Of a DNA stretch of 64,000 bases, positions 45,405 through 53,611 are shown in pieces. Both the position numbers and the translations under genes were made by a program. The DNA comes from Solirubrobacterales bacterium (GTDB lineage Bacteria > Actinomycetota > Thermoleophilia > Solirubrobacterales > 70-9): positions 4,893-68,892 of the forward strand of contig DATDLJ010000072.1 of assembly GCA_036519395.1 (NCBI GenBank). Reading direction: 5' to 3'. The first letter of the stretch is position 1. Each line of letters starts with the position of its first letter. Under the pieces are notes generated by a model. It saw only the letters and a program-made list of their open reading frames with translations, did no database searches and was not told where the DNA came from.

Positions 45405-46583
45405 CTACAACCCCATCGTTTTGCCGATGATCTCTTTCATGATCTCGTCGGTGCCGCCGCCGATTGGGCCTAGGCGGGCGTCGCGGACGGCTCGCTCGAT
45501 GCCGTACTCGCGCATGTAGCCATAGCCGCCGTGGATCTGGAGGGCCTGGTCGGCGATCTCCAGGACGGCGCGCTGGGTGACCAGCTTCGCCATCGAGACC
45601 TCCTGGATGCAGTCCTGATCGCTGTGGAAGAGGCGAAGGGAGTTGTAGGTGAGGGCGCGGCTGGCCTCGGCTTGGGTCGCCATCTCGGCGACTTGGTGGC
45701 GAATCGCCTGGAATTTGCCGATCGGGCGGCCGAAGGCTTCGCGCTCGAGGGCGTAGGCGACGCTGACCTCGATCAAGCGCTGCATCGCGCCGACGGCGCC
45801 GATCGCCATCAGCAGTCGCTCCCAGGCGAAGTTGGCCATGATCAGTTTGAAGCCGCCGTTTTCCTCTCCAAGCAGGTTCTCGGCTGGCACCTCAACGTCG
45901 GTGAAAGAGATTTCGCCGGTGTCGGATGAGTGCCACCCCAGCTTCTCCAGCTTGCGGCTGACCTCGTAGCCGGGCATCTCGCGCTCGAGGACGAGGAAGG
46001 AGATGCCGCCGTGGCCGCCCTCCTCATTGGTCTTGCAGGCGCAGACGAGGAAGTCGGCGCGGACGCCGTTGGTGATGAAGGTCTTGGCGCCGTTGACGAT
46101 GTAGGTGTCGCCGTTGCGTACGGCGGTGGTCGTGAGCGAGGCGACGTCGGAGCCGGCGCCCGGCTCGGTGATCCCGAGGGCGCCGATCTTCTCGCCGGCG
46201 ATTCCAGGCACCAGCCAGCGCTGCTTCTGCTCCTCGGTGCCGAAGTTGAAGATCGGTGGCATCGCGATCGAGGCGTGGGCGTTGAGGCCAGCGGCGACGC
46301 CGCCGGAGCCGCCGGAGCGGGCCAGCTCCTCGACCCAGACCGCGTCGTGGAGGTGGGTGCCGCCCTGGCCGCCCAGCTCCTCGGGAAACTTGAGGCCGAG
46401 GAAGCCGAGCTCGGCGCAGCGGGAGTAGAGCTCACGGGGGAATTCCCGCGCCGCCTCCCATTCGTCGACGTGCGGTGCGATCTCCTTGGCGACGAAGCGG
46501 GAGACGGTTTCCCGCAGCTCCTCGTGCTCGTCGCCGAAGGGGGGGAGGGTGGCGCGGGCGCCGCTGTCCTTGACGACGGTCAC
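45405..46583 (-). CDS. Acyl-CoA dehydrogenase
   Basis: VTVVKDSGARATLPPFGDEHEELRETVSRFVAKEIAPHVDEWE...ALGITEPGAGSD...GGYGYMREYGIERAVRDARLGPIGGGTDEI. GTG at 46583 (GTGA overlap with the NTF2-like stop). Confidence 0.9.
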   Translation of the reverse strand: MTVVKDSGARATLPPFGDEHEELRETVSRFVAKEIAPHVDEWEAAREFPRELYSRCAELGFLGLKFPEELGGQGGTHLHDAVWVEELARSGGSGGVAAGLNAHASIAMPPIFNFGTEEQKQRWLVPGIAGEKIGALGITEPGAGSDVASLTTTAVRNGDTYIVNGAKTFITNGVRADFLVCACKTNEEGGHGGISFLVLEREMPGYEVSRKLEKLGWHSSDTGEISFTDVEVPAENLLGEENGGFKLIMANFAWERLLMAIGAVGAMQRLIEVSVAYALEREAFGRPIGKFQAIRHQVAEMATQAEASRALTYNSLRLFHSDQDCIQEVSMAKLVTQRAVLEIADQALQIHGGYGYMREYGIERAVRDARLGPIGGGTDEIMKEIIGKTMGL

Positions 46584-47029
46584 GAAGCACTCTCCTTGCT
46601 CGCCGGCGCTTCCCAGTCGGCGAGCATCCGGTAGCCGCGGCCCTCGTGGTCGAAGCCGAGTAGGTCGCCCTGAGGATTCTTCTTGCCGCCGTGGTGGTAG
46701 GCGCGCACCTCGGCGATCTTGCCGTCGCGGAAGCGGAACCACTCGGTGCCCCGGTCGAGCCGCTGCTCGCCGCTCTTTGGGTCGCGCCAGGTCATCGTCC
46801 ACTCGATCGCGACTTCGTCGTCGGCCACGATCAGGTTCTCGATGTACCACTGGGCGTCGATCGTTGAGACGCCGAGGGCGGCGAGGTCGCCAATGGCCTT
46901 CGATCCCTCATGCGGGCCGAGGCGCGTGTAGTAGTGGGTCGCGTCGTCGGTGAAATGCGATGAGACCGCCGCGGCGTCGCCGGTGTTCAGCGCCTCGTAG
47001 TACGAGCGGACGTGGTCAGCGTGCGACAC
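46580..47029 (-). CDS. NTF2/SnoaL-like fold protein
   Basis: MSHADHVRSYYEALNTGDAAAVSSHFTDDATHYY...EWFRFRDGKIAEVRAYHH. GTG start with GGAGG upstream. Confidence 0.75.
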   Translation of the reverse strand: MSHADHVRSYYEALNTGDAAAVSSHFTDDATHYYTRLGPHEGSKAIGDLAALGVSTIDAQWYIENLIVADDEVAIEWTMTWRDPKSGEQRLDRGTEWFRFRDGKIAEVRAYHHGGKKNPQGDLLGFDHEGRGYRMLADWEAPASKESAS

Positions 47030-47059
47030 CGCGGATGCCTCCTGGGTCGGAGCTGCGGC

Positions 47060-51694: not shown

Positions 51695-52910
51695 CGACGT
51701 CAAGGTCCTGGACCTGACCCGGCTGCTGCCGGGCGGGTTCTGCTCGTTGCTGCTCGCCGACCTCGGCGCCGAGGTGCTGAAGGTCGAGGACACCGGGATG
51801 GGCGACTACATCCGCTGGGCGCCGCCCTATTACGGCACCGAGGAGCAGCAAGCGCTCGGCACCCGCTCGTCTCTCTACCTCTCACTCAACCGCGGCAAGC
51901 GCTCAGTCCGGCTCAACCTCAAGAACGACCAGGGGAAGGAAGCGCTGCTGCGCCTGGTCGCCGAGCACGATGTCGTCCTCGACGGCTTCCGCCCCGGCGT
52001 CCTCGACCGCCTCGGCGTCGGCTACGAGCGGATGCGCGAGGCCAATCCCCGGATCGTCTTCTGTGCGATCACCGGCTACGGCCAGGACGGCCCCTACACC
52101 CAGCGGGCAGGGCACGACATGAACTACCTAGGGCTGGTCGGCCTGCTCGGTCTGACCGGCGCCAAAGGCGGGCCACCGGTGCAGTCTGGAGGGCAGATCG
52201 CCGACCTTGGCGGTGGCGCCCTGATGGCCGCCTTTGGGGTGATGGCGGCGCTGCACGAGCGGGGACGCTCCGGCGAAGGGCAGATGGTCGACATCTCGAT
52301 GGCCGACGGCGCCCTCTCCTGGCTGGCGATGGTCGCTGGCCGTTACTTCTGCGACGAAGAGGTGCCGCAACGGGGCGAGCAGCAGCTCGCCGGCGGACTC
52401 GTCTGTTATTTGCCGTATGAGGCCAGCGATGGTTGGGTCACTTGCGGGGCGCTGGAGCCGAAGTTCTGGGCCGCCTTCTGCAACGGGGTCGATCGGCCCG
52501 ACCTGATCGAGAAACAGTTTGAGGCGCCCGGCTCCGAGGCCTGGACCGAGGTCGCCGCCGTCTTCCGCTCGCGCAGCCGCGACGAGTGGCTTGCCTTCAA
52601 CGACGAGCACGACTGCTGCATCGAGCCGGTCCTGGACATCGACGAGGCGCTCGATTCGGAGTTGGTGCGGGCGCGCCAGATGGTCGTCGAGCTGGAGCAG
52701 CCCGAGCTCGGCACCGTCCGCCAGCTCGGTAACCCGGTGAAGCTGAGCCGCACCCCCGCCGACCCCAGCCGCCCGGCGCCCGCCTTCGGCGAGCACACCG
52801 ATGAGGTCCTAACAGAGGTCGGCTACTCCGCCGAGGAGATCACGGCGATGAAAGAGTCCGGCGCCGCCGCCGGTCCTGCCGCCGAGCCGCAAGAGGAGTT
52901 CCGCGCGTGA
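51675..52910 (+). CDS. Family III CoA-transferase (CaiB/BaiF)
   Basis: [33 protein letters not shown]...[17 protein letters not shown]... Confidence 0.9.
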   Translation: [411 protein letters not shown]

Positions 52911-53611
52911 GTTCCACCGGCACTCCCGATACCCAGAACCAACTGCTGCGAATGGGTGAGCTGGCCGAGGCCTCCGGGGTTCCGGCGCCGACGATCAAGC
53001 ACTACCTGCGCGAGGGCTTACTGCCGGAGCCGGTCAAGACCAGCCGCAACATGGCCTACTACCCACCCGAGTTCGTCGACCGGATCAAGCTGATCAAGCG
53101 CCTGCAGGAGGAGCGTTACCTGCCGCTGAAAGCGATCAAGAACGTGCTCAACGAGGATCCCGACCGAGCCAAGGCGATGCTTGAGCTCGGCGACCAGATC
53201 CTCGATCGCGCCCTTGCCGGCGAGCGCTCCCGGACTAGCGCCACCGATGTCCGCAAGCGCTACGGGTTGCCGAAGGAGGTCCTAGACCGCCTCGCCGAGC
53301 TCGAGGTGCTGACCCCCAACAGCCGCGGCTACTCACCCTCCGACGTGACGATCATCGAGGCGATCAGCCGCTTTCGCGCCGGCGGCTACGACGAGCAGAT
53401 CGGCTTCACCGTCTACGACACCCTCCGCTACAAAGCGGCATTGGAAGAGCTTGTTCGCCAGGAGGTCGACGTGGTGATGGAACGGCTCGCCGGCGAGGTG
53501 CCGCCGGAGCGGGTGGTCGAGATGCTGGAAGTCGGCGCCCAGCCGCTGAAGGACCTGATCGCGGCCCTGCACACCAAGCTGATGGTCGCCGAGCTCGAGC
53601 GGCGAAGCTAG
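52907..53611 (+). CDS. MerR family transcriptional regulator
   Basis: LLRMGELAEASGVPAPTIKHYLREGLLPEP... N-terminal MerR HTH. Last gene of the plus-strand acyl-CoA operon. Confidence 0.85.
   Translation: MSSTGTPDTQNQLLRMGELAEASGVPAPTIKHYLREGLLPEPVKTSRNMAYYPPEFVDRIKLIKRLQEERYLPLKAIKNVLNEDPDRAKAMLELGDQILDRALAGERSRTSATDVRKRYGLPKEVLDRLAELEVLTPNSRGYSPSDVTIIEAISRFRAGGYDEQIGFTVYDTLRYKAALEELVRQEVDVVMERLAGEVPPERVVEMLEVGAQPLKDLIAALHTKLMVAELERRS

Follow-up and report, generated by a model that had tools for sequence, protein, structure and literature searches.

The window, a stretch of 64,000 nucleotides, comes from the genome of a Solirubrobacterales bacterium (assembly GCA_036519395.1, contig DATDLJ010000072.1, positions 4,893 to 68,892 of the forward strand); the source is a metagenome-assembled genome (MAG) of 2.72 Mb in 112 contigs, 92% complete, and the G+C content of the window is 62-71%. 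Between positions 45405 and 53611, it contains a divergent cluster of eight genes in which a biotin-dependent carboxyltransferase (CT) and an enzyme of the zinc-dependent beta-keto-acid cleavage family (BKACE, DUF849) are encoded side by side. A stand-alone biotin carboxyl carrier protein (BCCP), here called BCCP70, and a second crotonase are encoded 15 kb upstream. The features, with acyl-CoA dehydrogenase abbreviated to ACAD and long-chain acyl-CoA dehydrogenase to LCAD, are:

45405..46583, minus strand: ACAD_a, LCAD/FadE-like, 392 amino acids (Pfam ACAD N, M and C domains, E 1e-25 to 1e-50)
46580..47029, minus strand: SnoaL/NTF2-like protein, 149 amino acids, a variable accessory gene (Pfam SnoaL_2, 72.8 bits)
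47060..48274, minus strand: ACAD_b, LCAD/FadE-like, 404 amino acids (Pfam ACAD, three domains)
48275..48407, no strand: shared divergent control region, with a 25-bp box at 48359-48383 and a 50-bp palindromic insertion at 48299-48348
48408..49199 (alternative GTG start at 48384), plus strand: crotonase ECH1 (Pfam ECH_1, 198.8 bits)
49199..50791, plus strand: CT, acyl-CoA carboxylase beta type, 530 amino acids (Pfam Carboxyl_trans, 567 bits)
50801..51694, plus strand: BKACE, 297 amino acids (Pfam BKACE, 301 bits)
51675..52910, plus strand: family III CoA-transferase, 411 amino acids (Pfam CoA_transf_3, 370 bits)
52907..53611, plus strand: MerR-family regulator, 234 amino acids, with a long C-terminal domain (Pfam MerR_1, 84.7 bits)
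34143..34355, minus strand: BCCP70, stand-alone biotin carrier of 70 amino acids, TB7.3/PRK05889-type (Pfam Biotin_lipoyl, 71.5 bits)
33332..34138, minus strand: second crotonase (ECH_33k), 4 nt 3' of BCCP70 (Pfam ECH_1, 172.6 bits)

Open reading frames (ORFs) and Pfam matches bear out the eight cluster genes, with the coordinates and families given to them in a first-pass annotation made from the sequence, and the ORF coordinates also agree with the tight or overlapping spacing described there. On the minus strand, ACAD_b and the SnoaL-like gene are separated by 30 nt and the SnoaL-like gene and ACAD_a overlap by 4 nt. On the plus strand, the crotonase and CT genes overlap by 1 nt, a gap of 9 nt follows between CT and BKACE, and the BKACE/CoA-transferase and CoA-transferase/MerR junctions are overlaps of 20 and 4 nt. 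For the crotonase, the ATG at 48408 is a better start than the GTG at 48384, given that a 25-bp box kept in 59/59 relatives ends at 48383. No biotin carboxylase, 3-hydroxy-3-methylglutaryl-CoA (HMG-CoA) lyase, 3-hydroxyacyl-CoA dehydrogenase or thiolase domain was found by Pfam within 45405-53611, so the absence of these enzymes, and of a biotin carboxylase/BCCP alpha subunit, from the cluster holds as claimed. None of the eight cluster proteins reaches the cut-off of a curated NCBIfam equivalog.

Conservation of the gene set

In a search of one genome per species, close relatives of the BKACE were encoded in at least 584 stretches. Neighbours were counted in the best 80 of these at least 584 stretches, with the loci that have enough flanking sequence as denominators; all 80 belong to Solirubrobacterales or to unclassified actinobacterial MAGs, with BKACE identities of 87-97%. 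CT lies beside the BKACE in 69/69 of these related loci, ECH1 in 65/65, ACAD_b in 56/56, ACAD_a in 49/51, MerR in 71/72 and the CoA-transferase in 70/76; MerR stays beside the BKACE even in loci without the CoA-transferase. The SnoaL-like gene is variable, being present at 60% identity or more in 15 of the 80 loci. This gene arrangement is far beyond chance, and the cluster is one real co-conserved unit. The first-pass annotation had proposed checking whether the gene set is conserved in related genomes, and had matched it to no pathway that could be named; co-conservation is upheld in the 80 species-level genomes, and the unit is unlike any described pathway. The module thus occurs widely in a soil lineage that is abundant and mostly uncultured, and its core reaches other actinobacterial classes.

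The extent of this core was followed in a sample of 401 Actinomycetota genomes, in which relatives are not independent of each other. Both orthogroups are sharply bounded in the sample: members of the BKACE orthogroup share 52% identity or more, against 40% or less for other BKACEs, and for the CT the values are 57% or more for members and 49% or less for the next paralogues. The BKACE orthogroup occurs in 56 of the 401 genomes, the CT orthogroup in 62 and a BCCP70-like protein (E at most 1e-13) in 80; BKACE and CT occur together in 51 genomes, CT and BCCP70 together in 59 of the 62 CT genomes, and 316 genomes have none of the three. The CT search scored three candidates per genome, so CT absences are soft.

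Twenty loci around more distant BKACE orthologues were fetched: 16 belong to other classes, and four to the order or family of the source genome. In those other classes, the recurring members are the crotonase, CT and BKACE only (CT and BKACE 52-63% identical to those of the cluster, ECH1 40-52%). A biotinyl protein of 65-70 amino acids is encoded directly 3' of the BKACE, usually followed by a second crotonase, giving an older core in the order crotonase–CT–(BKACE)–70-aa biotin carrier–second crotonase. The CoA-transferase was not found beside the module in these classes. Unrelated genes often lie between the module members, namely those for uracil phosphoribosyltransferase (UPRTase), a DUF4349 protein and a two-component system, and the PdtaS kinase gene borders the region. 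ClpS and DUF2017 genes occupy the usual place of the BKACE in family f18.

The core does not always hold together. Tight ECH1-CT-BCCP70-ECH2 operons, ECH2 being the second crotonase, occur without an adjoining BKACE in two separate lineages (L111 and L113, genomes G313 and G003), and a third lineage (L112, G357) has CT-BCCP70-ECH2 with ECH1 about 2 kb upstream. In G003, a BKACE-ACAD-ACAD operon (L092, 9592-12777) lies about 43 kb from the ECH1-CT-BCCP70-ECH2 operon, not beside CT; its ACAD pair is directly 3' of the BKACE and is 52-53% identical to the cluster ACADs. With the genes of G003 split into these two operons, the module behaves as two sub-modules, one of BKACE and ACADs and the other of the carboxylase.

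Other genes recur near the module. In the window, DUF4349 and an ECF sigma factor are encoded at 21072-22884 on the minus strand, about 25 kb from the cluster, and in a locus of a distant class (L094, 13757-16792), DUF4349 stands between crotonase and CT, and a sigma factor gene immediately precedes the crotonase. Along with the PdtaS, ClpS/DUF2017 and UPRTase genes, the DUF4349 and sigma factor genes hint at a very old conserved chromosomal gene order. Directly 3' of the cluster, a 1011-amino-acid class III cyclase-AAA_16-TPR protein is encoded at 53608-56643 on the minus strand, convergent with MerR and with the stop codons overlapping by 4 nt; it has no helix-turn-helix domain and is retained in this place in many related loci, at 54-89% identity. 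On the other side, beside ACAD_a, an ORF of 370 amino acids (44223-45335, minus strand) matches nothing in Pfam or NCBIfam, is missing from all 80 related loci and represents a lineage-specific insertion.

Biotin carrier and carboxyltransferase lineage

It had been suggested in the first-pass annotation that the CT, apparently without a partner, could use a carrier encoded elsewhere. This proved right: BCCP70 is present 15 kb upstream, and its counterparts lie directly beside CT or BKACE in other lineages. BCCP70 scores above the cut-offs of two NCBIfam models, NF006079 (96.3 against 95) and NF004547 (87.1 against 75). Its biotinylation motif, SMKM, contains Lys36 of 70, the 35th residue from the C-terminus; a biotinyl-lysine about 35 residues from the C-terminus is the rule quoted in PMC3048393. 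Orthologues in other classes are 44-63% identical and are encoded directly 3' of BKACE or CT; for those that follow the distant BKACE orthologues, the range is 50-63%. Among the Solirubrobacterales of the 401-genome sample, BCCP70 is on the contig of the module in 8/10, at 6-22 kb from CT or from the BCCP-adjacent BKACE, and the BCCP70-crotonase pair is kept in 7/7 Solirubrobacterales genomes inspected. Since BCCP70 co-occurs with the CT lineage and adjoins it, it is predicted to be the dedicated carrier of the CT. For its four carboxyltransferases, the genome encodes a single biotin carboxylase, AccA, a protein of 589 amino acids on contig C20 that includes a BCCP of its own, with an AMKM motif, as a fused domain.

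Compared with solved structures, the CT is most similar to PccB, 12S and archaeal acetyl-/propionyl-CoA carboxylases (ACC/PCC), at 480-518 bits. Scores are lower for AccD5 (419-422 bits), for the beta subunits of methylcrotonyl-CoA carboxylase (MCC; 305-335 bits) and geranyl-CoA carboxylase (GCC; 263 bits), and lowest for GcdA (106-132 bits), the most distant; by score, therefore, the earlier label "MCC-beta-like" does not fit. The CT is 44% identical to the PccB of the same genome and 41% to its MccB, the two being about equal over the N-domain. Its motif DSAGARIQEA (DSGGARIQEG in PccB) is invariant in the orthologues that cover it, those of other classes included, and GAGY(Y/F)VM is nearly invariant, the form GAGYYVM(C/N)G comparing with GGAYDVM in PccB and GAGNYGMCG in MccB. 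At the position of the specificity aspartate of PccB, Asp422 in S. coelicolor and Asp407 in M. extorquens (an isoleucine in 6ybq, apparently the D407I variant), the CT has a tyrosine, as do MCC-beta subunits. The cluster CT thus has neither the specificity aspartate nor the DSGGARIQEG and GGAYDVM motifs of PccB, and belongs to a distinct lineage, forming a clade of its own apart from PccB and MccB.

The other three carboxyltransferases of the genome are encoded elsewhere. The one on contig C93 has canonical PccB motifs, including the specificity aspartate, and lies beside methylmalonyl-CoA mutase. That on contig C34 has the canonical MCC-beta motif GAGNYGMCGRAY and belongs to a locus with an ACAD of the isovaleryl-CoA dehydrogenase (IVD) type and the sole HMG-CoA lyase of the genome, in the order ACAD(IVD)-HMG-CoA lyase-CT; this is an ordinary liu locus, without alpha subunit and hydratase. 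The fourth (contig C47, 19437-21209) is very divergent, being 32% identical to the cluster CT, with a Pfam score of 264 bits and the motifs YAEGGGGRPGDT and GLGAQAM; it adjoins a 732-amino-acid multi-pass membrane protein.

A third clade, CT', was found near the HMG-CoA lyase in families f9 and f18. Canonical MccB at the level of identity of the (G000-like) protein of this genome was found in 0/26 genomes of f9 and 0/21 of f18, though HMG-CoA lyase orthologues are present. CT' shares 43-47% identity with the cluster CT, against 36-39% with PccB or MccB; of its motifs, DSAGARIT(D/E)Q and GAGLYAMAGP, it has DSAGAR and GAG.Y.M in common with the cluster CT. Genome G048 has a tight CT'-crotonase-HMG-CoA lyase-AccA operon (L124, 6733-11669), with an ACAD, biotin ligase and a second AccA nearby, and the crotonase of the CT' operon keeps both catalytic glutamates. 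CT' also lies near HMG-CoA lyase in G291 (L123, 5601-19794), G288 (L125, 2500-6703) and G070 (L126, 3885-8473); the G288 locus also contains a 3-hydroxyacyl-CoA dehydrogenase and a SnoaL-like gene. From its context, CT' would perform the role of MCC, and it is the nearest relative of the cluster CT among the sequences compared; it looks as if an MCC-beta subunit has here been displaced by one of a different lineage. The position of CT' in HMG-CoA-lyase operons means that the lineage of the cluster CT includes an enzyme that is probably of the MCC type. A direct displacement of canonical MccB by the cluster CT was considered and fails, since the genomes without MccB carry CT' beside HMG-CoA lyase; the argument is instead one from a sister clade.

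Remaining enzymes and the control region

In ECH1, the first catalytic glutamate is replaced by glycine and the second is kept: in the alignment with the hydratase 5zai, "gglElal" corresponds to "ggmGlal" and "lpEin" to "tpEin". The same is seen in 23/23 ECH1 orthologues aligned. Conversely, the second crotonase of the window keeps the first glutamate and has PPAK at the second (alignment to 5xzd), while in the distant ECH2 proteins, 30-38% identical to it, both are lost (glutamine and serine or alanine). Single-glutamate crotonases include enoyl-CoA isomerases and hydratase-lyases. As the module crotonases fall short of catalytic glutamates, simple hydration is not a safe assumption.

The BKACE is present in a single copy in the genome. 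The Pfam match spans the full length of the protein. Its HxH, STG, E-x-F/Y and R.G.ED motifs, presumably with the residue roles assigned in the Kce structure, align with those of Kce (2y7d) and BKACE15 (8rio), and the enzyme looks active; BKACE groups G6 and G7 have no BKACE activity. It scores below all four named NCBIfam BKACE equivalogs (Kce, NF052387, 236.7 against 382), and where Kce has the amine-binding Glu14 ("GAETTR"), it has an isoleucine ("GVIANR"). A role as Kce in lysine fermentation was rejected on the equivalog score and the missing amine-binding glutamate, and the current annotation of such BKACE genes as "3-keto-5-aminohexanoate cleavage protein" is unsupported by the sequence evidence.

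Among solved structures, both ACADs most resemble mycobacterial FadE proteins and human LCAD, ahead of IVD and glutaryl-CoA dehydrogenase (GCDH). For ACAD_a, the best solved relatives are the mycobacterial 3r7k (373 bits) and 3oib, then human LCAD, with IVD and GCDH lower; for ACAD_b, they are 2pg0 (325 bits), 3r7k and human LCAD (276 bits). The Pfam match of the CoA-transferase covers the whole protein. Its best solved relative is human succinate-hydroxymethylglutarate CoA-transferase (SUGCT, 9br6, 220 bits), with the racemases Far and MCR nearly as high (191-216 bits), and its best NCBIfam matches are mesaconate and glutarate transferases, each below its cut-off. The protein thus appears nearest to dicarboxylate transferases, and may be either a transferase or a racemase. 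A resemblance to carnitine or dehydrocarnitine (Cai) chemistry, noted earlier, was rejected: CaiB (NF002914) scores 104 against 413 and CaiA (NF002885) 179-199 against 540, far below the cut-offs, and the BKACE has isoleucine in place of the Kce glutamate.

The MerR protein contains the MerR_1 domain and matches no named NCBIfam equivalog at its cut-off. In the control region between the two operons, the 25-bp box GTGGACAGTAGCACTTCCCACTTCC (48359-48383) is kept in 59/59 aligned intergenic regions of related species and is the natural candidate for a MerR operator serving both divergent operons. Its 13-mer core, GACAGTAGCACTT, is unique in the genome. The sole other core site at one mismatch or fewer, 5' of a DEAD-box helicase gene on contig C62, is at chance level (about three expected), and a genome search with the box core found no regulon link to the BCCP70 operon. 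The box was also considered as an RNA hairpin of the ANTAR/PdtaR type; this was rejected, the putative stem being without covariation among the 59 loci. A promoter and terminator scan gave nothing above shuffled expectation.

The 50-bp palindrome GACGTGTCTGAG...CTCAGACAC at 48299-48348 has a second copy in the window, at 21019-21068 between NUDIX and DUF4349 genes. Of the 59 related loci, only some carry it in the control region, there as GGCGTGTCCGAG...CTCGGACACGTC. As it is absent from most related loci, it was rejected as an operator; it is an insertion-polymorphic repeat, small mobile or REP-like, outside the conserved control logic.

Proposed role and comparison with known systems

In this locus, an old actinobacterial module is found in the form that it has in Solirubrobacterales. 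As the best-supported reading, though a little short of probable, we propose that it serves a Liu/Atu-like degradation, with mostly different parts, of acyl-CoAs with a blocking beta-substituent. The two LCAD-like ACADs would form a 2-enoyl-CoA, which would be gamma-carboxylated by a dissociated three-part biotin carboxylase made up of CT, BCCP70 and the biotin-carboxylase domain of AccA. The atypical one-glutamate crotonase or crotonases would hydrate the carboxylated product and possibly cleave it to acetyl-CoA and a free beta-keto acid. From exactly these two compounds, the BKACE would produce acetoacetate and a shorter acyl-CoA. The family III CoA-transferase, which is translationally coupled, may handle a dicarboxylyl-CoA intermediate or activate acetoacetate, and MerR would control both divergent operons via the conserved 25-bp box.

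Several observations favour this proposal. The two ACADs, the crotonase, CT and MerR parallel liu/atu clusters; this likeness had been pointed out in the first-pass annotation, and it is strengthened by the occurrence of CT' in CT'-hydratase-HMG-CoA-lyase-alpha operons, which places the sister clade of the cluster CT in a Liu setting. The cluster is kept together in 80 species-level genomes, CT, BCCP70 and BKACE are linked and co-occur across classes, and the BKACE retains its metal and catalytic motifs. One biotin carboxylase stands against four carboxyltransferases in the genome, and the nearest solved relative of the CoA-transferase acts on C5-C6 dicarboxylates, HMG included. No family I CoA-transferase (ScoAB/AtoDA-type) for acetoacetate was found in the 92%-complete genome; as HMG-CoA lyase and BKACE release acetoacetate, another enzyme must activate it.

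Other observations weigh against it. A biotin carboxylase is linked to the module in no genome inspected, and it is not obvious what a free BCCP would be for when AccA already includes one. By the scores against structures, the CT is overall nearer to the alpha-carboxylating PccB types than to MCC or GCC beta subunits, and the genome already has a canonical IVD-HMG-CoA lyase-MccB locus. The module contains no lyase, and with ECH1 lacking the first glutamate and the distant ECH2 proteins both, hydration is doubtful. CT occurs without BKACE in 11 sampled genomes, four of them at least 94% complete, so the BKACE is not obligatory. Finally, given the interspersed housekeeping genes (UPRTase, ClpS, DUF2017, DUF4349), part of the linkage could be inherited gene order.

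A chance neighbourhood, in which unrelated acyl-CoA genes lie side by side and share no pathway, can hardly be believed. The first-pass annotation would have taken an ordinary liu locus elsewhere in the genome, with the cluster genes not co-conserved, as a sign of it; the locus exists, and housekeeping genes are interspersed in other classes, but the cluster genes are strongly co-conserved (69/69, 65/65 and 56/56 for CT, ECH1 and ACAD_b), their stop and start codons overlap, linkage and co-occurrence hold across classes, and the divergent operons share a conserved control box. Strong co-conservation despite a separate liu locus points to a distinct pathway. Within such a pathway, CT and BCCP70 could instead form an ATP-independent biotin system without biotin carboxylase, a decarboxylase or transcarboxylase acting on a dicarboxylyl-CoA such as glutaconyl-, methylmalonyl- or malonyl-CoA. 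The carboxyl group would be set free or handed on to a different acceptor, the crotonases, poor in glutamates, would be of the decarboxylase or isomerase type, and the ACADs and the SUGCT-like transferase would feed in glutarate-type dicarboxylates. In favour of this, a linked biotin carboxylase is lacking in all genomes inspected (this genome and G275 have one each, fused to its own BCCP). Biotin decarboxylases and transcarboxylase are built in this way, with a dedicated carrier beside a carboxyltransferase and no biotin carboxylase, and the 12S subunit of the latter matches the CT with 487 bits. Zero-glutamate crotonases include decarboxylases, the distant ECH2 proteins lack both glutamates, and methylmalonyl-CoA decarboxylase is a high match (179 bits) for the second crotonase of the window; the CoA-transferase is nearest to glutarate and HMG transferases. 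However, no OAD_beta-type carboxybiotin decarboxylase subunit (PF03977) was found in the 92%-complete genome, and GcdA is the most distant relative of the CT, so the GcdA-like decarboxylase put forward earlier is a weak idea; of a sodium-pumping Gcd/Mmd/Oad enzyme, only the small carrier is present. Of a transcarboxylase, the 12S-like CT and the small carrier are there, but a 5S-like second transferase (HMGL-like or PYC_OADA) was not found in the module. The ACADs are not GCDH-like, the sister CT' operon carries an alpha subunit, and in E. coli, biotin carboxylase acts well on the biotinyl domain of BCCP by itself, which makes AccA acting in trans the simpler solution. We therefore regard an ATP-independent system as unlikely.

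Less likely still is an alpha-carboxylase, with the CT as the beta subunit of an acetyl- or propionyl-CoA carboxylase producing malonyl- or methylmalonyl-CoA, and the BKACE acting on a derived C3 or C5 beta-keto acid such as malonate semialdehyde or 3-oxoglutarate; parts of the synthetic CORE cycle would then have a counterpart in nature. PccB/ACC types are the closest matches of the CT, and a bulky tyrosine occupies the position of the PccB specificity aspartate, where the D407I change led to an engineered Pcc used for acetyl-CoA carboxylation (PMC11961710). More than 20 BKACEs convert malonate semialdehyde and acetyl-CoA to formyl-CoA and acetoacetate (PMC11961710), the cluster transferase is in the same family as formyl-CoA transferase (216 bits), and the best crotonase match is 3-hydroxypropionyl-CoA dehydratase. 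Against this, malonyl-CoA reductase, 3-hydroxypropionate dehydrogenase and thiolase are not in or near the module, and the tyrosine and GAG.Y.MCG are common to MCC-beta, not ACC-type enzymes. The family matches of ACADs, crotonase and transferase are generic and far below curated cut-offs, the sister clade CT' sits with HMG-CoA lyase, and two ACADs and two crippled crotonases would be left unexplained. More improbable again is the idea that CT and BCCP70 move a carboxyl group between metabolites without biotin carboxylase or ATP in one of two specific ways: the BKACE, a zinc-dependent TIM barrel, might by analogy with the 12S/1.3S/5S transcarboxylase be the second carboxyl-transfer or beta-keto-acid site, or methylmalonyl- or malonyl-CoA might be the CO2 donor. 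If true, it would provide a function for the orphan TB7.3-type carriers of actinobacteria.

The proposed degradation of beta-substituted acyl-CoAs, if correct, would be a new way past branched carbons in soil lipid and terpenoid turnover, and would widen the range of substrates and architectures of biotin enzymes. The module joins a new CT lineage, a small TB7.3-type carrier and a BKACE orthogroup, all without assigned physiology, and it might be a source of natural enzymes for synthetic pathways built on BKACE, the CORE cycle among them. In the literature searched, no paper joining BKACE with carboxyltransferase or methylcrotonyl-CoA carboxylase was found, and none on the module; the words carboxylase and carboxyltransferase are absent from a NetSyn preprint on the genomic contexts of BKACE.

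The carrier recalls two known proteins. M. tuberculosis TB7.3 (Rv3221c) is not known to have an assigned partner. It has been called a putative BCCP (PMC3048393); BCCP70 scores above the cut-off of the 71-residue carrier model NF004547, and TB7.3 is numbered next to pdtaS (Rv3220c), while BCCP70 adjoins the PdtaS kinase gene in other actinobacterial classes. The likeness consists of the family model and the neighbouring gene only; unlike TB7.3, BCCP70 is linked to a specific CT lineage. The yngE/yngH/yngHB genes of Bacillus subtilis encode a dissociated acyl-CoA carboxylase with a free small BCCP. As in the cluster, CT and a free BCCP of about 70 residues are separate and the context is catabolic, with ACAD and crotonase; NF006079, the model matched by BCCP70, is 70 residues long. 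The difference is that no dedicated biotin carboxylase gene is linked to the cluster, the only one of the genome being fused to its own BCCP.

With the known BKACEs (Kce; the subfamilies of Bastard et al. 2014; Paracoccus BKACE15, PDB 8RIO), the cluster enzyme has in common the fold, the metal and catalytic motifs and the expected reaction, from beta-keto acid and acetyl-CoA to acyl-CoA and acetoacetate; it differs in adjoining a biotin carboxyltransferase. The CORE cycle (PMC11961710) likewise brings a PCC-type carboxylase, a BKACE and a CoA-transferase together around acetoacetate; it is described as new to nature, and it needs a malonyl-CoA reductase and a thiolase, neither of which is in the module.

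The closest parallel is with the Liu and Atu systems. In Pseudomonas, Liu (leucine/isovalerate) and Atu (acyclic terpene) degradation involves an ACAD, MCC or GCC, an (iso-hexenyl/methyl)glutaconyl-CoA hydratase, an HMG-CoA-type lyase and the MerR-type regulator LiuR. A canonical Liu locus has a beta subunit of MCC/GCC lineage, an alpha subunit, HMG-CoA lyase and a two-glutamate hydratase; the cluster has a CT of separate lineage, a crotonase lacking one catalytic glutamate and, as carrier, the free 70-residue BCCP, with neither alpha subunit nor lyase. It also has the BKACE and the family III CoA-transferase, and the canonical IVD-HMG-CoA lyase-MccB locus is separate. Like the Liu and Atu clusters, it unites ACADs, a biotin carboxyltransferase, a crotonase and MerR in one divergent cluster, and its sister clade CT' fills the position of MccB in the CT'-hydratase-HMG-CoA lyase-alpha operons.

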